Shown here: positions 8,966-59,464 of the stretch, in pieces
Numbering within the stretch: the stretch's first letter is position 1
Layout: each line of letters opens with the position of its first letter
Virus record (IMG/VR): IMGVR_UViG_3300023238_000006
Span: 1 to 64,000 of that record
Source: a virus
Taxonomy: Duplodnaviria > Heunggongvirae > Uroviricota > Caudoviricetes
Strand: one strand, 5' to 3'
DNA: 64,000 nt
Made by a program: the position numbers and the translations under genes
The notes under the pieces: model-generated
What the model saw: the letters and a program-made list of their open reading frames with translations, nothing else
The model's database searches: none
Told to the model about the DNA's origin: nothing

Positions 8966-8986
8966 GGAGGAGGAGGAGGAGGAGGA
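8966..8986 (+). repeat. (GGA)7 microsatellite inside the polypurine tract.
   Basis: ggaggaggaggaggaggagga. Confidence 0.8.
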
Positions 8987-9300
8987 TGGAGAAGAGGGAG
9001 AGGTATAGTGTGTGTAGGTGGTAGCTAGGCCTTAGCTAGGAGCGGTAGCGACGGTAGGGAAGGTAGAGGGTGGGTGGTGGGGCAGGTAAGTAGGTGTGGT
9101 TGCCTTGAGAGGGAGGGTCCACAAGAGGGTAGTAGGCAGTGGAGATGGTAGGTTCTCAGCTGTTTGGCTTATGGGGATATTTTGTTATTTTTTGGTAGGG
9201 GGTTAGTATAGCCCACACAAACCCACACTGCACCTCCCACCCCCCGCCTAGCTAACAGAGCAAAGGGACCCAAGAAACTTGCCAGTAGTATTAGTTGTAG

Positions 9301-12007: not shown

Positions 12008-12423
12008 CACCAGTATACACGTAACGCCGTGTGGACTAGTATCGTCTCTGTCTTACAGAAACTCTAGTAATATAGAAGCCTCGCAAAAACACCACCTAAA
12101 ACCCTTGCAAACATAAGGTACAGCGAGGTTTAGTCGTGTACAATAATAAAAGTGGCATAAAGGCACTTCAGCCCAGCTCTTACTACGAGCCTTCAACAAT
12201 TACATAAATACCATAAAGGCATACTATGAACTACCAACAAGAAGACATTAATAGGAGAAGTCTCAGATAGAGGCTTGCCACTTCTAGCATTAGAACTAGA
12301 GACTAAATATAATCTACCTGCAGAGGTAATTATAGAAAGTGACATAAAGGCCTTCCACCTTTTATTTAAGTATAGAATCAGACCTAATATCCACTACTCT
12401 CCACTAAGCCTAAAGGACTCACA

Positions 12424-21825: not shown

Positions 21826-22365
21826 ATGAATAAAGTAGAATTACAAGAAGCACTAAGACTTCATAAGTTATGGTTAAATGATAAACCTGGTGGAATTAGA
21901 GCTGGTTTAAGTAAGGCTAATTTAAGTAATGCTAATTTAAGTTATACTGTTTTAAGAGGTGCTGATTTAAGAGGTACTAATTTAAGTAATGTTGATTTAA
22001 GTTATACTGATTTAAGAGGTGCTGATTTAAGTAAGGCTAATTTAAGAGGTACTAATTTAAGTTCTACTGATTTAAGAGGTGCTAATTTAAGTTATACTGA
22101 TTTAAGAGGTACTAATTTAAGTAATGTTGATTTAAGATGTGCCGTAGGAAACAACAAAGAAATAAAATCGCTTCAAATAGGTACTTATTTAATCTCTTAT
22201 ACAGCAGTTGTTTTAAATATTGGTTGTGAGTCTCACTCTATCAAAAAGTGGGCTTGTTTCAGTGATGAAAGAATAGCTAGTATGGATGAAGAGGCTTTAG
22301 AGTTTTGGAACTTAAACAAACATATAATTTTAGAGTTATGTAACAGAGGAGAAGGAAATGACTAA
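21826..22365 (+). CDS. Pentapeptide-repeat protein (179 aa) with A(D/N)LSx repeats and a C-terminal domain of about 70 aa. Very AT-rich codon usage.
   Basis: ANLSNANLSYTVLRGADLRGTNLSNVDLSYTDLRGADLSKANLRGTNLSSTDLRGANLSYTDLRGTNLSNVDL. Nucleotide-level internal repeats. Confidence 0.7.
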   Translation: MNKVELQEALRLHKLWLNDKPGGIRAGLSKANLSNANLSYTVLRGADLRGTNLSNVDLSYTDLRGADLSKANLRGTNLSSTDLRGANLSYTDLRGTNLSNVDLRCAVGNNKEIKSLQIGTYLISYTAVVLNIGCESHSIKKWACFSDERIASMDEEALEFWNLNKHIILELCNRGEGND

Positions 22366-23445: not shown

Positions 23446-23992
23446 CCAAGAAGTTATCAGCCCTTGCAGGTAGGTTAACAGAAGTCAGATATGCAAGTAT
23501 CGTGGACTTTAAGCAGTGCAAACGAAGAGACGCTGCAAGGCTAGTTTGGAGTCTTAGGTAGCTATGGTAATATGTTTGTTATCATGGCTATTACCATCCG
23601 CTGTGGAGCGAGGTTACGACCAGTACATATTTATATGTTACCCCCTAGGAGGTTTCAGCTGCTATCGTATTGCTCCCAATTATGTTGCGGTCGTCTAATA
23701 GTAGGGCCCAATCTAGTGTAATTGTGCTTCAAAACCACACTAAGAAACTCTTAGTCGTCTAATTGGCAGGGCACACTCAACAGGCAATGCAGGTGCAAAT
23801 CCTGCCCACAACTAAATACGTTGTATATATAACTTTACTGAGTGACTTCCTAGACAAAACTTTGCATCTAGGTGCAACTTGCAGCATAGGTAAGGTTACA
23901 TATACAACTAAATAATTCTAAAAAGATTAAGAAGCCTACTTACTGAATAGTATTTAGGTCTAGGATGGATAAAGTGGGCCTTACGAGCACAT

Positions 23993-24020
23993 AAAGTGGT
24001 TCGAGTCCACTTAATCTTTT
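23993..24020 (+). terminator. Hairpin AAGTGG-TTCGAGT-CCACTT followed by AATCTTTTT. It is either a rho-independent terminator or the T-arm of a tRNA-like element. A 7-bp acceptor-like complement AAGATTA lies at 23923.
   Basis: Direct reading. The loop TTCGAGT is a canonical tRNA T-loop, but no anticodon arm could be folded by hand. Confidence 0.35.
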
Positions 24021-24064
24021 TAGAGTTATTTGCAGTAATTACATATACAACTAAAAGGATAACT

Positions 24065-31489: not shown

Positions 31490-32323
31490 ATGTTTAAAGA
31501 CAAAACAATTGCCATATACGACATTGAAAGTCCTTGGATAACTGATGCAGGAATCTCTGCCTTAACCCAAATATATTGTATAGGGGTGGTAACACTACTA
31601 AATGGCAATATCATAGATAAGAAGATGTATACCGAACACTGGACTACCTACTCAGATGGTTCATTAGTAGAATGTATGACTGCATTAAACTCTGCAGACA
31701 TTCGTGTAGCATTCAACAACATTGGATTCGATGACGTTGTAATGTCTAACGTTATAGGTGTAGGGATGCCTATAATATCTAGCACTCTGGACTTCAACTC
31801 CTTAGACTTAATCATATGCGCTAAGCTATGCTACAGCAAAGATGAACTAATGGCTATAGATATAGAGCTAAACCTAGATAAAGCCTTATGGGGTTCTTAC
31901 TCCTTACGAGCCTTTGGAGCTCGTCTAGGCAACGCTAAGATGCACTTCGATGAATTCGATGGTGGACTTACAGAAGACCTCTGTACGTACTGTATACAGG
32001 ATTGTGTGGTAACTGCAGACCTGTTTATACACCTGACTCAAAAAGAAAACTTTCCGATAGCTGCTGTACTAACAATAGAACATAAAGCTAGCACAATCAT
32101 CCAAGAGCAGACATTCCACGGATTTTATATTGATATAACTAAGACCAGAGCCCTTAACACTAAACTTCTCAAAGAGAAGCTAGAGATAGCTACTGAACTA
32201 AGCAAGACCTTTATGCCCAAATGGCTACCAGACGGTAAGGTACTTACCTATAAAAAGAAAAGTATAACTAGGAAGTTTCTTCCTAACAACAGTTACATTC
32301 CCCTACTGGGCACAAAGGTTTAA
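31490..32323 (+). CDS. Family A (T7-like) DNA polymerase, N-terminal fragment: 3'-5' proofreading exonuclease domain plus the start of the thumb (277 aa).
   Basis: Exo I IAIYDIES. Exo II FNNIGFDD (T7 FHNGHKYD). Exo III YCIQDCVVTADLF (T7 YNVQDVVVTKALL). Collinear with T7 gp5 residues about 1-300. Confidence 0.8.
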   Translation: MFKDKTIAIYDIESPWITDAGISALTQIYCIGVVTLLNGNIIDKKMYTEHWTTYSDGSLVECMTALNSADIRVAFNNIGFDDVVMSNVIGVGMPIISSTLDFNSLDLIICAKLCYSKDELMAIDIELNLDKALWGSYSLRAFGARLGNAKMHFDEFDGGLTEDLCTYCIQDCVVTADLFIHLTQKENFPIAAVLTIEHKASTIIQEQTFHGFYIDITKTRALNTKLLKEKLEIATELSKTFMPKWLPDGKVLTYKKKSITRKFLPNNSYIPLLGTKV

Positions 32324-32489: not shown

Positions 32490-32589
32490 CATAGGTGTAG
32501 CTGAGGCTATACTAACTATGGGGATATTAATAATATTAATAACGTTCATAGGCACATACTGTGCTGTTGAACACTCTAAGAAAAACTAA
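32482..32589 (+). CDS. Small membrane peptide (35 aa).
   Basis: Manual translation. Confidence 0.25.
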   Translation: MSSIGVAEAILTMGILIILITFIGTYCAVEHSKKN

Positions 32590-32864
32590 ACTACCTTCCT
32601 CCTGGCATTGCTAATACCATATAAGCCCAATGGCGTCTATTGGTCTTCCGCTGACGTACACTCGCTAAGACTAACTCCATTCATCTTCATTGGAGTATAA
32701 CATTAAGATGACCGAGAAGGGCACTATCATACTAACATCCGCAGCTCGGTATATAAAAATAAGAGCAAGGGATGTATGGCGGGACTAATACACCTTGCTT
32801 AATACAAACGTAATACAGAAAGATACTGTATAACAGACCCAGAGGCCGTTGAGGTAACGCTGCG

Positions 32865-32954
32865 GTAGGTGTAAAGTAGTCCGGTAACACTTGGTGTATC
32901 ATTTACCTGCAGAGGTATGCATCTAGATCGCTGGTTCAAATACAGCCACCTACC
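32865..32954 (+). tRNA. tRNA-like element with a 7-bp acceptor GTAGGTG/CACCTAC, a D-arm AAGT..ACTT and a T-arm GCTGG-TTCAAAT-ACAGC. The 37-nt middle region (anticodon/variable) could not be folded by hand.
   Basis: Manual base-pair check. Class II or intron-containing tRNA, or a tRNA-like decoy. Confidence 0.25.
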
Positions 32955-34348
32955 ATGAGAGAAGACTCAAACAACATTCCCGAACTTACAGTTCTAATCT
33001 ACCTTCATCGCGGATAGAAATTAGATAACCCTACAGGCTCCCGGCGGGCTGTGTAGGTTGAAACAAGCCATACTACTTAGGCTAAACTAGTAGCAGAGCA
33101 TAACTGCAATATCCGTCTGGTCCCCGTAAGGGACTCTATAAACTCCTAGTGAGCATACACACTAAGACAGGAATACAAGAGACTGCCTGACTACGCAGTG
33201 TATTGCGTAATACACCCAGTCAGTTGTGTGTTCTCTAGGGTTTTATACCCAAAGTTTCTATCAGCTTGATGATGGCGTATATCCTACGACACAAGGATCA
33301 ACACCGTGCCTCTTATCAAGGCTAGTACGCTGGTTGTATACGTATGAAGAAGTAGCTTGATACCTACATTTGAACCAAAACCGGTAACTGCTCCCGTTAA
33401 GGGCTCTGAGACGAGAAGGCTCTCGCCTTCTCTCCACAGCCTAGCAGCTAAGTTCCTAAGAGCATATAGATAACTGTTCCATAGATGTAAGCTGATGCCC
33501 AACGCTATGACTAAGTAACCCTAGAGCCCAACGAGATTAATTATCTCACCACACATTTGGATAGCACGTCGAGAGTCACTATGCCGGTCCATTGTAGATA
33601 CTCAATGCTATATGTTCTTAGGAGCTTATCCCTCCTGAAAAAAGCTAGTAACTTAATTACTCTTCTTAAACGTCAATGCACTATTATGCCCCAGATGTGA
33701 ACAGGGAATGCCTGGCAACGTATATAGGGAATGTTGTGAAGTGTCTTGCGTATTAGCACCATAGGTAGCACTTGGAGTATAGGTACCTAGCGACCTGCAC
33801 TCGAAAATTATATCAATGCGCTAAGCCCTTGTTGATACCTTGGGAGATGTCTACACTCGATGTGAGGGGACGCTAAATACAAGATCATCAGACCACTAGT
33901 TACCCATCACTAGTATAAATAAGATGGGCAATATGTAAACGTATAAAGTAGGGTTGCCTACAAATGTGGCTGTCCTCGAGGCTTGTAGACCACATCCTAT
34001 TAAGGTGCAGTTCAACTCTGATTCGTTTACACCAAAAATAAGTACCAGTCATCTAACTAGTCAAGAAGCTCCATTAAAGGAGCTAATGTGAGTGCAACTC
34101 TCACCTGGTACACCAGCTCCGTATAGAGTATAAACGATTCAGTCAAGAGTAAAGACTATAACTTATCCCCTCGGGATTGAAGCTTCAAAAAGTACGTCAC
34201 TGTGGAACAGGACTTAAAAGAAACAGTAGGTTCCTCACGTACCTTAAACGTGGGTGCATATGCTGCAGCCTGGTTGGCACGAGAGGTTCGATTCCTTTAA
34301 CAGCACTAGATATATCGAAAGATCCTCATATCTTAAATGGGGACGTAA

Positions 34349-34424
34349 GTACCATTAGCTTAATCGGTAAAAAGCGTCGACTATTAAAACATAAGATACT
34401 GGTTTGAATCCAGTATGGTACACA
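34349..34424 (+). tRNA. tRNA-like element with acceptor GTACCAT/ATGGTAC, U8, a D-arm GCTT-AATCGGTAAA-AAGC containing GG, and a T-arm ACTGG-TTTGAAT-CCAGT. The anticodon stem does not pair.
   Basis: Manual folding. Probable degenerate or pseudo-tRNA. Confidence 0.2.
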
Positions 34425-35190
34425 AAACAATGGGGCGAGCATTACAGAGGCAGGATGAATTTGCAACTTCATCAGTGAGTTTGACTCTCACCGCTCCACC
34501 ATGATACCACCTATGAGCATAAGTTATAAGCCAGGAATAAAACCGCCTGCAGTACCGAACAGTAAGGTACAGTGTTACCGGTCCACTTATGTTCTTAGGT
34601 GTTATCACCAGTCCCCAGCTAAGACTTAAAATAAATGCACTCCAAGCCATTATGAGTATAAACCATTGGCAGTACCCGCCGATAGCAGGGGCAGTTTAAG
34701 TGCTAACCAAGTCTCCGGAAGCTCATCTAGGTCAAGACTTTAAACTGACCCTAAACGAAGCAGGTTTTACCGTTGTACCTTAAACAATGGCTACGACTAT
34801 CCCTGTGGGTACATACAGGAAGACAGGATAAGTATACACTGCCTGAAGCGTGTAGTTAGTTGCGCACATCTAACCCAGTGCTGTATGTATCCTCAGGGGT
34901 CGTCTAGCTAAAGAATGACCGCTAATCATAAACTATAGCAGCGTGGCAAACAGAGCTGAAAGACTCAATACCAACCAGAGGTACCGGACGCTATAAAAAT
35001 TCGGGGTAGACGGAGTTAACCATAGGTGTACAACTACTGGTGCAAAAGCAATAAACTTATGAAGGTTATATACTCTCCTTTGGAGATCAAGTATGTAGCC
35101 TTTAGTAAGTTTATACAATACGTAACATAGTACAGATTAAAGCCATAAAAGGTACTTAATCTGTATTATAATAAACATTAAAGGAACCAG

Positions 35191-39023: not shown

Positions 39024-39255
39024 TTAGTTGGTTGAGGTGAAAGGCCTCTTATAAATAGCGTAGAGCTTACCACATAGTCTACCTAGACTCTAAACTTGCT
39101 GGCAACCAACCAGAGTGTTGATGGCTACACAGGTTTAACCATCTGCGAATGAGGCTCAGCCTAGCATAAGGCTAGTAGAGGCATGGTACCTCTACGATCA
39201 TTTATACTACTTATGAGTATAACGGTACCAATAATTAATATAAATAGGAATAACT

Positions 39256-40239
39256 ATGGCAACAGCACTACAAGACTTAATAAATATAATTAAAACAGAA
39301 GACAGTACATTGTTGCAATCAATAATAAAAGATATTGATGCATCAGACTACTCATGGGGTATGCCTGAGTTTTTAACCCACTTAACAACTTCACAGGTAG
39401 CTAGATTAACTACTAGCCAAATAACTCTACTAAAGAATATGAGGTTTAAAAGGGGGCAAACCTTAAGGCTGTATAGAGAAAGATGTATATTTGCAACAAC
39501 AATATCAGGAGCGCACTCTAAACAATGGGCCTTCATGCATGCCTCGGCGTTGTTTGCTAAGGAAGACCTTATCTACCTCAGCAAGTATGAAACTACTAAA
39601 TGGAAGGAAGCTAACCCATCAGGTGGTAGCACTAAAAAAGGTACTGAGCTTAACTTCGCTATGGACGACTTCTCTCTAGCACTATTCAAAGCCTCTATAA
39701 CTAAAGGCTTTCTCCGTACTGAAGCTAAGAACTACATCTTAGCAGTGAACAAAGCCTACTCTAGTGTGACTGCTACTGACCCTGTTAAGAAGCTAGCAGC
39801 AACTAAAATTCGTAACAAGTTCTACGCAGTTATACTAAACAACACCGAGGTACATACTAACGCTATGTTAAAGGAGCTACAATGGACAGACTTAGAGCCT
39901 GCAAAAGGTGGATACTACCAAGCCTCTGAAGACGAGGCACTATCCTTCTCATTCGGCGGTCACAGACATTTACTAAGCTACACAACTACTAACGCTATGG
40001 AGACGTACTCAACTGATATTGAAATAACTACCCACAACAACGGTACTGACAACGAACGTCATGCTGATCGTTTAGCCAGTGCTACCAGTATACTACTAAC
40101 TATTCACGCAGCAACTGGCAATACAGCTTACTTAGCACTAGCTACTCGTATGCTAAAAAACATCACATCTGATAGTAAGATTAAAGTACTTAACACAACC
40201 TCTGCCGTAGCTATGCTACGAGCTATACTAACTAAATAA
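39256..40239 (+). CDS. Hypothetical protein (327 aa) immediately upstream of the AAA/VWA pair.
   Basis: ORF track. No motif recognised. Confidence 0.55.
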   Translation: MATALQDLINIIKTEDSTLLQSIIKDIDASDYSWGMPEFLTHLTTSQVARLTTSQITLLKNMRFKRGQTLRLYRERCIFATTISGAHSKQWAFMHASALFAKEDLIYLSKYETTKWKEANPSGGSTKKGTELNFAMDDFSLALFKASITKGFLRTEAKNYILAVNKAYSSVTATDPVKKLAATKIRNKFYAVILNNTEVHTNAMLKELQWTDLEPAKGGYYQASEDEALSFSFGGHRHLLSYTTTNAMETYSTDIEITTHNNGTDNERHADRLASATSILLTIHAATGNTAYLALATRMLKNITSDSKIKVLNTTSAVAMLRAILTK

Positions 40240-52646: not shown

Positions 52647-53732
52647 ATGGGGGGAGATGTTATGGAGAATTTGAAGATAAACTCTGAGTACCTATTAAAC
52701 TTTCTACACCTCCATTACCAAGAAGTATATGATGCACTGGGAACTACTGAGCATGGGTATTTAGGCAAAGAGCCTAACTCCCACCACTTAGAAGGAACAA
52801 TCCTAACCCATACTAAAATGGTTATGGAAGTTGCTGAAACTACTTACCCTGGTAACATAAATATCCTAGTGACAGCAATGTTACATGATATAGGCAAACC
52901 TTATGTATATGAAGACATCGAGAAGTCTCACCGCAGACGCTTTGCATGTCATGAAGCGCTCAGCACATTTATGGCTAAGCCTATACTACAATATCTAGCT
53001 AACGTTATAGATATTGACCAAGAGTTAATACTAAAGGTAATAGCTCTTCATGGAAGTCTTTACAACTACTTTGAAGATAGCAGGATACCTGCTAATAATC
53101 ATCAGAAGATTGCTGATAAGTTTGGTAATGATCTAACTCTTTTAGAAGCAGTTGCTAACTTTTACTACTGTGACCACACAGGCCGTACTCAAGAGAGCCC
53201 TGGAGACATATCCGGTATCATGAAGGACTTTAAAGCTATAGCTACTTTATTAGTAGAGCCTAACGAACCTATATCTCCAGCTATTACAGTCCTCGTAGGG
53301 CCTCCTAGAGTCGGTAAAAGCACTTGGGTAACCAATCATGCCTTTGATACTACGATTGTCTCTAGAGACGCTCTGGTGGACTCTCACGGGGTAGGTTCTA
53401 CCTACTCTGAAAGATGGAAGTCTTTAAGAAGGGATACTCAAACGTTAATAGACAAAGAGCTGCTAAGCATATTCAACTCGGCTATTAAGGCCAAGAGGGA
53501 TGTAGTAGTAGATATGACTAACATGAGTAAAAAGAGCCGTAAAAAGTGGCTAACAAATGCTAGGGGCTATTACAAGAAAGCTATAGTTTTCATAGAGCCT
53601 AGGGAAGTGTTACTCGCTAGGAACACTCCTGATAAGTACATACCTGAGTACGTAATAGACAACATGATTAAAAGCTTTGTAATGCCTATGTACGACGAAG
53701 TGGACTACATAGAATTATATAAAGGACGGTAA
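52647..53732 (+). CDS. HD-Pnk-type RNA/DNA end-healing enzyme (361 aa) with an N-terminal HD phosphoesterase and a C-terminal P-loop 5'-OH polynucleotide kinase. An alternative start at 52662 has a better SD.
   Basis: HD signature NSHHLEG...LHDIGK. Walker A VLVGPPRVGKST. Adjacent to an Rnl1-type RNA ligase. Confidence 0.65.
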   Translation: MGGDVMENLKINSEYLLNFLHLHYQEVYDALGTTEHGYLGKEPNSHHLEGTILTHTKMVMEVAETTYPGNINILVTAMLHDIGKPYVYEDIEKSHRRRFACHEALSTFMAKPILQYLANVIDIDQELILKVIALHGSLYNYFEDSRIPANNHQKIADKFGNDLTLLEAVANFYYCDHTGRTQESPGDISGIMKDFKAIATLLVEPNEPISPAITVLVGPPRVGKSTWVTNHAFDTTIVSRDALVDSHGVGSTYSERWKSLRRDTQTLIDKELLSIFNSAIKAKRDVVVDMTNMSKKSRKKWLTNARGYYKKAIVFIEPREVLLARNTPDKYIPEYVIDNMIKSFVMPMYDEVDYIELYKGR

Positions 53733-54913
53733 TGAAATTTGACTTACTAACAAGAGATGAGTGCCAAGCAATAACTAAATCATCAGAAGCTTTCTTCTGT
53801 ATGACTAAGCATATTGAAGGACAAGTAGTTGAGCTATACGATTATCGTCTAGCCTCAATCAGTGACTTTGTTGACAACAAGGCCTTTGAACTAAGAGGCT
53901 TATGCTTTGTGCAAGACCCTGCTACTTTAGAATGGACTCGTAACTTACTACTTAATAAGTTCTTCAACATCAACCAAACTATTGGCTGGATGTATGAGGA
54001 GGTTAAGGGTAAGAAAGTTACTAGAGTTCAGAATAAAGAGGATGGATCTGTGGTGTCATTCGTAAAGTTTAAGAATGGTAACATTCGTGCTAAGTCTAAA
54101 ATGTCATTTGAATCTGATCAGGCTGTAATGGCTCAAGAAGTTTATACTACCAACTGTACCATACGTATGATTGTGGGTAGAGGACTAAGAACAGGGTTCA
54201 CTCCCATCTTTGAGCTAGTATCACCAGATAACCAGATTGTTCTTGAATATCAAGACACGGAATTAGTGTTGTTACAAATTAGAAATAACGAAACAGGTGA
54301 GTACCTAAACCCCAAGTTTTTATTTAGTGAAATAGAGTACTATGCTATTAAAACTACGCAGAATTTTCGGATAGAACATCCGCAGGTTGTATTAGACGTC
54401 TTACTAGATGCTAAAACATCCAACCAAGAACCTATAGAAGGCTGGGTAGTAACATTCGAAGATGGTCAAATGGCTAAGATCAAAACTGACCACTACTTAT
54501 CCCTCCACGGACTTATAGGTCCTGATGCCTTTAGAGAAAACTTGCTAGTTAAAACAATCCTAGATGGCAACATTGACGATGTAATATCAGCACTAGTACC
54601 CGGTATCAAACGTGATAAGCTTATAGAGATGAGCAACTTAGTAGAAGCCAACTTCAACCACTTAGTTGTTGAATTCAAAGAGCTACGTCGTAAATACTTT
54701 CAAGACTTCAAAGAAGATCGTAAAAGCTTTGCTATTGCACACAGGACTAAAGTAGCATTCGGTGGTGTGATGAAGACTATTAATAGCTCATTTAGAGATG
54801 TGGAGCAAGTAGCTGAGGAACAAGTGTCTCACTATATCCTTAAGCAATGTAAATCACTTGGTGATGCACAGAACTACCTTAACAAACTAAAGGAATCCAA
54901 TAATGGAATTTAA
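53732..54913 (+). CDS. rnlA: RNA ligase 1 (T4 Rnl1/gp63-like, 393 aa).
   Basis: FELRGLCFV matches T4 LECRGIMFE. KEDGSVVSF has the catalytic Lys as in TKEDGSLVS. LLQIRNNETGEYL matches LLNVRENETGEYI. EGWVVTFEDGQMAKIKTDHYLSLHG matches [25 protein letters not shown]. Confidence 0.8.
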   Translation: MKFDLLTRDECQAITKSSEAFFCMTKHIEGQVVELYDYRLASISDFVDNKAFELRGLCFVQDPATLEWTRNLLLNKFFNINQTIGWMYEEVKGKKVTRVQNKEDGSVVSFVKFKNGNIRAKSKMSFESDQAVMAQEVYTTNCTIRMIVGRGLRTGFTPIFELVSPDNQIVLEYQDTELVLLQIRNNETGEYLNPKFLFSEIEYYAIKTTQNFRIEHPQVVLDVLLDAKTSNQEPIEGWVVTFEDGQMAKIKTDHYLSLHGLIGPDAFRENLLVKTILDGNIDDVISALVPGIKRDKLIEMSNLVEANFNHLVVEFKELRRKYFQDFKEDRKSFAIAHRTKVAFGGVMKTINSSFRDVEQVAEEQVSHYILKQCKSLGDAQNYLNKLKESNNGI

Positions 54914-58378: not shown

Positions 58379-59464
58379 ATGTCAGTAAGAAGACACTTAG
58401 GCTTCGGATCAACCCTAGCCTTTCGCAATCTCTACCCACAAGTAGCCAGACTTACTGACAACGCTGGTAGACTAGCATACGCAAACTACGACCCTTCTCT
58501 AGGGGAGCCTCCAAACGAGGTTCAGCTAGAACTACTTCAAAACTACAAGTGTGACATGCCAACCATTACCTTCACTGGCTCTGAAAAGCTCCACGGTGAG
58601 AATATGGCTGTATGCTACAGTCAGGGGGAACTCTGGGTACAAGGTCGTAACCATATTAGAACTCTACTAGGAGATCAAAACGGTATGGCACAATTCGTTG
58701 AGTCAACTAAAGACCAGTGGTTGGGACTATTTATGGAAATAGGGCATCGAGAAGAACTTGATGACCAGGACCACACTATAGTAATCGACTGTGAATGGGC
58801 TGGCGGCAATATCCAAAAGGGTAATGCCGCTTGCTCAGGAACTGATAAAGGTGCTTACATCTTTGACTACTGTAGAGTTGTTAACAACGATACCAATGAG
58901 AGTGAGTATAAGAGCACTGAAGGGCTTTTCATCCCAACAGATAGCTCAATATACCTTATGAGCTCTTTTGCCTCCTACAGTGCTGTACTGGACTTTAACG
59001 AGCCATCTCAATGTGAGAAGGACTTAGAAAGGATGGCAACAGCTATAGAAGACTCGTCTCCTATAGCAGCTTACTTCGACAAACCTAATAACGTTGGTGA
59101 AGGGGCCTACCTCTGGGCTACCTACAACGGCAATGTCCTACGTCTTAAAGCCAAAGGCTTAAAGCACGGTGGTAAGCCTAAAGTACCTAGAGAGAACTCT
59201 AAAGTACTATCATCTGAAGATGCTAAAGAAATAAATGCCTTTGCTGAAGCTGTAACTCCTGTATGGAGAATCACACAAGCAATAGCTGAATCTGGTGCTA
59301 CTGAACATAAACATATTGGTATGGTTATTAAGTGGGTGCTGACTGACATTGCTAAAGAGGAAGGTCCTCTTATAGCAGCCATAACTGTCGAGTATAAGAA
59401 GACTCACTCTACTATTATTAGTATTGTGAAAGCTTACTATTTAGATAGCCTTAAAGAGTACTAA
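58379..59464 (+). CDS. Rnl2-family RNA ligase (361 aa).
   Basis: Motif I TGSEKLHGENMAV (T4 Rnl2 REKIHGTNFSL). DCEWAGGNIQKGNA matches FGEFAGPGIQKNVD. AYIFDY matches FYVFDI. Confidence 0.65.
   Translation: MSVRRHLGFGSTLAFRNLYPQVARLTDNAGRLAYANYDPSLGEPPNEVQLELLQNYKCDMPTITFTGSEKLHGENMAVCYSQGELWVQGRNHIRTLLGDQNGMAQFVESTKDQWLGLFMEIGHREELDDQDHTIVIDCEWAGGNIQKGNAACSGTDKGAYIFDYCRVVNNDTNESEYKSTEGLFIPTDSSIYLMSSFASYSAVLDFNEPSQCEKDLERMATAIEDSSPIAAYFDKPNNVGEGAYLWATYNGNVLRLKAKGLKHGGKPKVPRENSKVLSSEDAKEINAFAEAVTPVWRITQAIAESGATEHKHIGMVIKWVLTDIAKEEGPLIAAITVEYKKTHSTIISIVKAYYLDSLKEY

Follow-up and report, generated by a model that had tools for sequence, protein, structure and literature searches.

What becomes of a tRNA gene when a hairpin stands where its anticodon loop belongs? 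The question is raised by a locus in a phage genome of the Caudoviricetes (IMG/VR record IMGVR_UViG_3300023238_000006). Positions 1 to 64,000 of that record were analysed and this whole 64-kb stretch is called the window. At 32864-32955 (+ strand) it holds a tRNA-like gene of about 90 nt, hereafter element A, which is aligned by the Rfam tRNA model RF00005 (21.1 bits) and called by ARAGORN at relaxed thresholds. An initial annotation had described a tRNA-like element with perfect acceptor, D and T arms and an aberrant 37-nt core, and had proposed a class II tRNA, an intron-bearing tRNA or a tRNA mimic. The answer tentatively favoured here, from the sequence, is that element A would be a remodelled tRNA gene whose RNA may be processed like a tRNA, does not decode and displays a hairpin.

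The body of the element was examined arm by arm. The 5′ strand of the acceptor stem, GTAGGTG (32865-32871, + strand), forms 7/7 Watson-Crick pairs with 32947-32953, and the 3′ strand CACCTAC with the discriminator C is read from the sequence at 32947-32954 (+ strand). The 7-bp closing stem and the discriminator base of a decoding tRNA are present, and an eighth pair, G32864:C32954, can be added, in which G32864 is a possible G-1. TA separates the acceptor 5′ strand from the D arm and provides U8 (32872). The D arm, AAGT / AGTCCGGTAAC / ACTT (32874-32892, + strand), has 4/4 pairs and is seen both in the sequence and in the Rfam alignment. It lies at positions 10-25, as in a decoding tRNA, and its loop has A14 and G18G19; the last loop nucleotide is C, not A21. 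The T arm, GCTGG / TTCAAAT / ACAGC (32930-32946, + strand), has a canonical loop (T54, T55, C56 and A58). Its stem is made of 4 pairs and one mismatch, G32934·A32942. This is the loop-proximal pair G53·A61, flagged by the Rfam alignment, and the 5-bp T stem with G53-C61 of a decoding tRNA is missing. The linker TAGATC (32924-32929, + strand) occupies the position of the variable region. Outside the core hairpin, 16/17 stem pairs are intact. The 3′ flank of the element is C-ATG and CCA is not encoded. The coordinates and quoted strings of the initial annotation (acceptor, D arm, T arm and 37-nt core) are thus as stated in the sequence, and the acceptor and the D arm are perfect; the T arm is not.

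Could such an arrangement arise by chance? The window was scanned for sequences with 7/7 acceptor pairs, T8, 4/4 D-stem pairs, at least 4/5 T-stem pairs and the T-loop motif, and dinucleotide shuffles (n = 200) were scanned in the same way. Two matches were obtained in the window, element A and 34349-34421, both on the + strand and in the same gap free of open reading frames (ORFs). Shuffled windows gave a mean of 0.125 matches, with at least two matches in 1/200 shuffles, and the resemblance to a tRNA is therefore not due to chance. ARAGORN with default thresholds found zero tRNA and zero tmRNA in the whole window. With 95% thresholds, its sole call in the window was element A, as ‘tRNA-Lys(ttt)’ at 32864-32955. 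On a 131-nt slice, RF00005 aligned its positions 1-71 onto 32865-32954 (21.1 bits, E 0.019) and skipped a 31-nt local insert at the anticodon-arm position. Element A was not reported in Rfam scans of a 5-kb slice and of the 64-kb window; at gathering thresholds, the latter gave one tRNA, at 34349-34422. The gathering score of RF00005 is 29 bits, and element A obtains neither this score nor the default tRNA-finder call expected of a decoding tRNA. The initial annotation had named the lack of any covariance-model call, together with that of a small RNA from the locus, as a result that would speak against the element: RF00005 does align it, at a score below the gathering one. The tRNA-like character itself is borne out by real arms at the right spacing, the end-to-end RF00005 alignment and the location in a phage tRNA island. 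The tRNA-like domain of a tmRNA was found neither by ARAGORN, tmRNA search included, nor by Rfam. Like the tRNAs of phage clusters (RF00005), element A has canonical arm spacing, U8, A14, G18G19, T54-T55-C56 and A58, lies in a tRNA island on the coding strand and, as many phage tRNAs do, leaves CCA unencoded. Unlike them, it has no anticodon stem-loop, contains G53·A61, scores 21.1 bits against the 29 required and is rejected by default ARAGORN.

What replaces the anticodon arm is a 31-nt bulged hairpin (32893-32923, + strand) that recurs in minimum free energy (MFE), constrained and core-only folds. It is made of a 6-bp stem GGUGUA/UGCAUC, a 5-nt bulge UCAUU on the 5′ side and an apical hairpin UACCU-GCAG-AGGUA. 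The stem is the former anticodon stem plus the 26:44 pair. All 5+7+5 registers of the 37-nt core (32893-32929) were scanned for T at loop position 2, a purine at loop position 6 and at least 4 stem pairs, and none combined U33 and R37 with four or more pairs. The earlier remark that no clean anticodon stem could be drawn is thereby confirmed. Element A cannot decode, because a hairpin stands where the anticodon loop belongs and no canonical anticodon arm can be drawn. Constrained folding, which had been suggested as a check, gave a cloverleaf carrying the long bulged hairpin at -23.1 kcal/mol; the unconstrained MFE was -26.1 kcal/mol. The class II tRNA was rejected, being drawn by relaxed ARAGORN only and at -14.6 versus -23.1 kcal/mol. 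The intron-bearing tRNA was also rejected. The excess is 12-14 nt, the only bulge is the 5-nt one on the 5′ side, no bulge-helix-bulge is present (as judged by eye) and excision of the insert never restores a U33 loop. Bacterial group I introns in the anticodon loop are hundreds of nucleotides long, and the archaeal bulge-helix-bulge lies at position 37/38. An intron is ruled out because 12-14 nt is too short for group I and a one-sided bulge is not a bulge-helix-bulge. The core had also been described as full of restriction-type palindromes. This holds locally, with 3 palindromic hexamers in the 37-nt core versus 0.48 expected (P ~0.013). The ORF-free gap as a whole has the density of the window (15.6 versus 15.0 palindromic hexamers per kb), and a regional enrichment of restriction sites was rejected as the meaning of the palindromes. 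The CTGCAG of the core is simply the hairpin apex.

Where does this hairpin come from? A 21-nt segment of it, TATCATTTACCTGCAGAGGTA (32897-32917, + strand), is 19/21 identical to 12308-12328. The latter is part of a second hairpin copy (12308-12334, + strand), which precedes an ATG (12425) by about 100 nt and is located in a separate stretch free of ORFs. The second copy has a 6-bp outer stem TATAAT/ATTATA, a bulged C on the 5′ side and the same apical UACCU-GCAG-AGGUA. The 14-mer TACCTGCAGAGGTA of element A recurs exactly once in the window, at 12315-12328 on the same strand, with 0 occurrences in shuffles. The similarity ends at 21 nt and the flanks of the two copies score like shuffles. In element A, the loop position is wholly taken up by the repeat, which also includes the last two anticodon-stem nucleotides. 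Since the repeat covers the loop position and leaves the stem intact, a copy of a dispersed hairpin has taken the place of the anticodon loop. The 19-21-nt segment was either copied from the intergenic hairpin 12308-12328 or is common to both places. An IMG/VR scan with a 16-base version of the hairpin gave 48 matches, approximately the number estimated by chance, and those inspected in context resembled coding sequence. A further motif, (A/T)GTGACATAAAGG(A/C)C/TT, was seen at 12148, 12335, 17713, 21049 and 31468 of the window. The ATG at 31490 is immediately preceded by one copy, and another follows the second hairpin copy by 7 nt; the motif is probably a ribosome-binding or regulatory region.

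These results bear on the most conventional explanation, a decoding tRNA of odd shape, such as a class-II-like tRNA-Lys(UUU) or one whose anticodon loop is expanded. The lone ARAGORN call at 95% thresholds is indeed a tRNA-Lys(ttt), and the tRNAs of relatives of this phage also have odd anticodon loops with G33. In the ARAGORN drawing the acceptor has 8 bp, the anticodon stem has 4 bp with a U·C mismatch, position 33 is A and the variable arm is short. To decode, the RNA would have to tolerate these features together with G53·A61, in a fold that is 8.5 kcal/mol worse. The register scan found no combination of U33, R37 and at least 4 pairs, default ARAGORN and the Rfam gathering score both reject the element, and the paralogous hairpin at 12308 favours the long-hairpin fold. 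A decoding tRNA is regarded as highly improbable.

Element A lies in an ORF-free tRNA/small-RNA island of 2.7 kb (32490-35190, + strand), in which no ORF of at least 60 amino acids is found over most of the length. The small ORFs of the island gave zero matches to PHROG. Two of them, on the minus strand and overlapping element A (32732-32902 and 32799-32939), were rejected as genes on account of the lack of a PHROG match and of their opposite orientation; the genes neighbouring the island are all on the + strand. The product of the upstream gene is 277 amino acids long and contains a DNA-polymerase exonuclease-like domain; the genes found downstream are DUF3307, an NMN-adenylyltransferase-like gene and NAMPT. 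The phage, an uncultured one, is far from INPHARED entries: the island has no DNA match there and the RNR shares 35% identity with the enzyme of jumbo coliphages. The gap is 100% identical in several independent metagenome assemblies, on contigs encoding an identical DUF3307 protein; element A is present in SRR7528869, JGI 3300022848 and ERZ27315646. Because these assemblies are independent, the sequence of element A is natural, and the 100% identity means that no microdiversity is available.

Element A might instead be one domain of a larger structured RNA running across the island, like the large ornate RNAs found beside phage tRNAs. The island is hairpin-rich, its G+C content is slightly above that of the flanks and several of its blocks are conserved in relatives. 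Rfam searches of this island and of the relatives' islands with permissive E-values gave tRNA and a weak RF00233 match at module B (described below), and no GOLLD, ROOL or other large RNA; a known large RNA was rejected on this basis. Element A is moreover closed on itself by its 8-bp terminal stem, and the interval that holds it differs in length and content among relatives. This explanation was judged very unlikely.

Is the island maintained in other phages? Relatives were found via homologues of the upstream 277-amino-acid gene: L022 (68% protein identity) and L028-L031 (52%). Blocks in the same order are common to the island, to L028 7791-9394 and to L022 3632-4807. At the head of the island, a promoter- or leader-like block of 38 nt (32673-32710, + strand) has 97% identity to its counterpart in L022 and 89% to those in L025 and L027; a variant is present in L028. 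In L025 and L027, found by a metagenome scan with part of this block, the head block lies about 30 nt upstream of a tRNA-Gln(UUG) (67.7 bits). In L022, where the block is 97% conserved, the protein of the upstream gene is only 68% identical. Judging from position and conservation only, it may be the promoter or leader of the island. A motif, GAG[CT]ATA(A), forms the core of this head block. On the + strand, 8 of its 23 copies in the 64 kb lie in the 2.7-kb island; it is seen in the 32673-32710 block, at 33096, 33151, 33460, 33775, 34126, 34515 and 34654, and also at 39215. Copies occur 10-15 nt past modules B and D (see below) and one precedes the gene starting at 39256 by 41 nt. The motif may be a phage promoter or processing signal. 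As for element A itself, GTATAAC at 32828 was rejected as its promoter (21 copies versus 14.5 in the window, an enrichment that is not significant).

Other blocks are shared as well. The block TATGTTCTTAGGAG.TTATC recurs in L022 and L028 and, in the IMG/VR contig L034, is found 200 nt upstream of a tRNA-Trp; in the window it occurs twice, with a hairpin after it. The blocks CCTAGAGCCCAACG and CAGGGGCAGTTTAAGTG are also shared by the islands of diverged phages. In the window these short blocks lie at 33520-33557, 33609-33630, 34588-34603 and 34686-34702; the phages compared are L028, L022 and L034, and no block has an Rfam match. Genuine or approximate tRNAs are located in or beside the relatives' islands: Gln (L025 and L027), Thr (L015), Trp (L034), an ‘Asn(att)’ in L028, and a ‘Stop(tta)’ and a 36-bit tRNA-like gene in L032. 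Genes for RlaP and for a CCA-adding-type nucleotidyltransferase (PolyA_pol) directly follow the homologue of the 277-amino-acid gene in L022 (916-2526) and L036 (7959-10170), and adjoin an ORF-free island in L022 only. The roles of the CCA-adding-type enzyme and of RlaP are reviewed in PMC7824862. Element A is a different matter. The interval that holds it is 680 nt long here versus 338 nt in L028, and no counterpart was found in L028 or L022; the element looks like lineage-specific cargo of a variable interval. Searches of INPHARED with the whole island (megablast and blastn) gave only weak T-arm matches, between module C and phage tRNA-Arg. Comparisons of element A with the fetched relatives by blastn-short and Smith-Waterman gave scores not above those of shuffles. 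Two pattern scans of GTDB genomes for element A gave 0 matches, IMG/VR searches with two flanking proteins gave no relatives, DUF3307 homologues were not syntenic with the island, and two further IMG/VR pattern scans, one with a pattern off by one base, gave nothing.

The island contains at least three tRNA-like modules besides element A, and all four modules of the window have abnormal anticodon regions. Module B (34042-34115, + strand) is tRNA-like, with a 6-nt ‘anticodon’ loop AUUAAA, a T loop UGCAACU and an encoded ACCA. Its RF00233 match (tymovirus tRNA-like structure) is weak, at 18.9 bits. Module C (34349-34424, + strand) is a tRNA by Rfam (46.7 bits) with 1/5 pairs in the anticodon stem; it is the sole Rfam-level tRNA of the window and is missed by ARAGORN at default settings. 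Module D (34431-34501, + strand) lacks a D arm; it has an acceptor, a T arm whose stem is that of B, and a 6-bp stem topped by an 8-nt loop. The orthologue of module C is an L028 tRNA (9071-9144, 61.2 bits). The acceptor and T stems of the two are identical and their D stems differ by a compensatory change from C-G to U-A. Module B has homologues in L028 (8669-8718) and L022 (4437-4500), in which two acceptor pairs and two T-stem pairs are changed in a compensatory manner. In this family the segment between the acceptor and the T arm is 15-39 nt long and the L028 copy is a 46-nt minihelix. Because stems change in a compensatory manner in B and C despite a lost or variable middle, selection in the island therefore acts on the top half, made of the acceptor and the T arm, and not on the anticodon. 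The modules were found by requiring good acceptor and T stems, so that their intactness is partly a matter of ascertainment; the comparisons of B and C are independent of that.

Several details of these modules were recorded in passing. The stems of the B/D family are GTGAG/CTCAC versus GGCAG/CTGCC, and GTACCAG/CTGGTAC versus GATTCAG/CTGGATC, and its T loops are unusual (UGCAACU, UGCAAGU and UGUGAGU). AUUAAA at the loop position is common to B, C and the L028 tRNA. Among relatives, the anticodon loop is CGAUUAA in L028 9071-9144 (G33, A34) and UGUUAUA in L032 8732-8804 (G33, U37, the ‘Stop(tta)’). At 34257-34308 of the window, a canonical T arm AGAGG-TTCGATT-CCTTT is closed by a mere 5-bp stem TGCTG/CAGCA. 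Its L028 counterpart (8978-9066) is about 90 nt long, has a GCGGGG/CCCCGC acceptor, a GATAGG-TTCGATT-CCTATC T arm and a CACCA tail, and lies immediately upstream of the L028 tRNA. Taken as a whole, the island probably holds more interest than element A by itself, above all for its B/D minihelix family and its conserved blocks.

Elsewhere in the window, an ORF-free stretch at 23899-24060 contains a T arm AGTGG-TTCGAGT-CCACT inside a perfect 13-bp stem TCTAAAAAGATTA/TAATCTTTTTAGA, flanked by a direct repeat TTACATATACAACTAAA at 23899 and 24044. Two D-arm-like GTCGTCTAAT..AGGGC repeats and a GCAGG-TGCAAAT-CCTGC hairpin were seen at 23690-23810. A 15-nt tandem repeat of about 14 or more copies (21871-22185) lies within the ORF 21826-22365, in a segment of low G+C content (0.30-0.34) and strongly positive GC skew. 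Over the whole window, GATC is rarer than expected (101 versus 229) and CTGCAG commoner (26 versus 9.4), and GTCGAC occurs once only.

Is element A a working gene or a dead one? It could be a relic, that is, a tRNA gene whose anticodon loop was destroyed by a short insertion or gene conversion, a young pseudogene whose RNA would be a by-product. This is a real possibility, nearly as likely as a remodelled gene. Element A is unique to this phage and the equivalent interval of relatives has no counterpart; ARAGORN and Rfam scores are below threshold; the tRNA-like genes of the lineage are damaged to various degrees, as in module C and L032 2845-2918; and an insert that is a dispersed repeat fits an accident at the DNA level. 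Pseudo-tRNAs and tRNA-like RNAs in phages are already known. Element A resembles pseudo-tRNAs in scoring below threshold, lying near real or near-real tRNA genes, being lineage-specific and having one near-invariant pair broken. It differs from them in that the damage is confined to the replacement of the loop by a structured repeat and is not scattered. The 16/17 intact pairs and the exact preservation of the anticodon stem around the insert speak against a relic, although a recent event explains them equally well. So do the retention of a 2.7-kb ORF-free island, syntenic in relatives, in spite of the compactness of phage genomes, and the top-half selection seen in modules B and C.

Other observations weigh against an RNA that is made and maintained. 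The mismatch G53·A61, at a near-invariant pair, is the picture expected of decay. In L032, the 36-bit tRNA-like gene at 2845-2918 keeps its CAU anticodon arm and has a degenerate T loop, which shows that tRNA genes of this lineage do decay. No homologue of element A was found in any relative or collection searched, and with it no evidence of covariation or purifying selection. When the sequence is folded in isolation, the acceptor stem and the core hairpin persist in the MFE structure and the D and T arms are lost. A scan for the sigma-70 consensus showed no enrichment in the island, which bears on the promoter role of the 38-nt block, and the counts of sigma-70 promoter and intrinsic terminator patterns in the island equal those of shuffles. 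Finally, the window ORFs that were scanned yielded no CCA-adding enzyme.

How would a remodelled tRNA gene work? We infer transcription, processing and stability of the element A RNA, and any ligand it may have. The element would be transcribed together with the island. RNase P would cut the 5′ end, and 3′ trimming and CCA addition would complete the RNA. RNase P, the 3′-trimming enzymes and the CCA enzymes recognize their substrates by the elbow and by the top half (acceptor and T arm), and not by the anticodon. Processing of the tRNA type would be expected for this reason. The T-loop modification enzymes may also recognize the tRNA shape of element A, in which the GG of the D loop and the T loop can form the elbow. 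This would yield a stable RNA, about 90 nt long, whose tRNA body would be the handle by which the hairpin is processed and kept stable. Modules B and C, which keep the top half and not the anticodon, lend support to this by analogy.

The architecture, with the arms kept and a hairpin continuing the anticodon stem, is that of a tRNA scaffold. In the engineered scaffold (Ponchon and Dardel; PMC3753655), the anticodon stem-loop is replaced by a hairpin, and the chimeras are processed and stable in E. coli. Element A likewise keeps the acceptor, T and D arms and carries its hairpin on the anticodon stem; the scaffold is a laboratory design, whereas element A is natural. A more specific version can be imagined, in which a tRNA body was fitted by the phage with a hairpin, UACCU-GCAG-AGGUA, that is regulatory or binds a protein. 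Once matured and stabilized by host tRNA enzymes, the RNA would titrate the binder of the hairpin or deliver it. Together with B/D and C, element A would then belong to a class of RNAs using the top half as a handle. As part of this version, the RNA might be charged by HisRS through G-1:C73. This version is doubtful. 

Two groups of non-decoding RNAs were compared with the element. The 3′ tRNA-like structures of plant viruses (tymovirus, RF00233) are similar in being non-decoding and in mimicking the top half, and module B shares the UGCAACU T loop. Element A differs from them: it gave no Rfam match besides tRNA, its acceptor is a plain helix with no pseudoknot and it lies inside the sequence of a DNA phage. 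The small stable RNAs of the T4 tRNA cluster and the YrlA or Y-RNA-like RNAs are also non-decoding, and YrlA has a tRNA-like module. Element A is comparable to them as a small non-decoding RNA that would be made alongside tRNAs. It differs in having no sequence or Rfam match to them, an ordinary acceptor and no long Ro-binding stem; no Ro/TROVE gene was found among the window ORFs scanned.

Might the element protect the phage from host nucleases? The initial annotation had put forward a mimic or cleavage decoy against anticodon nucleases and had pointed to tRNA-repair enzymes. The repair genes do exist: the ORF 52647-53732 encodes HD and AAA_33 domains (Pnk-like), the ORF 53732-54913 encodes RNA_lig_T4_1 (Rnl1), and the ORF 58379-59464 encodes a second RNA ligase, of the RNA_ligase family (PF09414). 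A decoy or sponge for a host tRNA-targeting nuclease, acting beside Pnk/Rnl repair, would also fit the abnormal anticodon regions of all four island modules. Phage tRNAs have been proposed to escape anticodon nucleases through changes in their anticodon loops (van den Berg et al., 2023; PMC10264068). Element A resembles these evasive tRNAs in its abnormal anticodon region and in belonging to a phage with tRNA-repair genes. The evasive tRNAs, however, keep a 7-nt loop and decode, whereas element A has no decoding loop. Anticodon nucleases recognize the anticodon loop; element A presents no 7-nt loop of the anticodon type and could not compete for them. A decoy for an enzyme reading the acceptor or the T arm is conceivable, and nothing here points to one. 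A decoy role was considered quite unlikely.

What is new here is the clean replacement of an anticodon loop by a dispersed hairpin repeat, in an island with conserved tRNA top halves. If element A is a relic, the lesson concerns annotation, as ARAGORN sees 0 and Rfam 1 of at least four tRNA-derived elements in the window. It would also reveal one way in which phage tRNA genes die, by exchange of the anticodon loop for a dispersed hairpin repeat. If the RNA is made and stable, the engineered tRNA scaffold would have a natural counterpart in element A, itself part of an island that conserves the acceptor/T-arm half of tRNA and can do without the anticodon half. This would point to non-decoding uses of the tRNA shape in phages, such as processing punctuation, RNA stabilization and the titration of RNA-binding factors.

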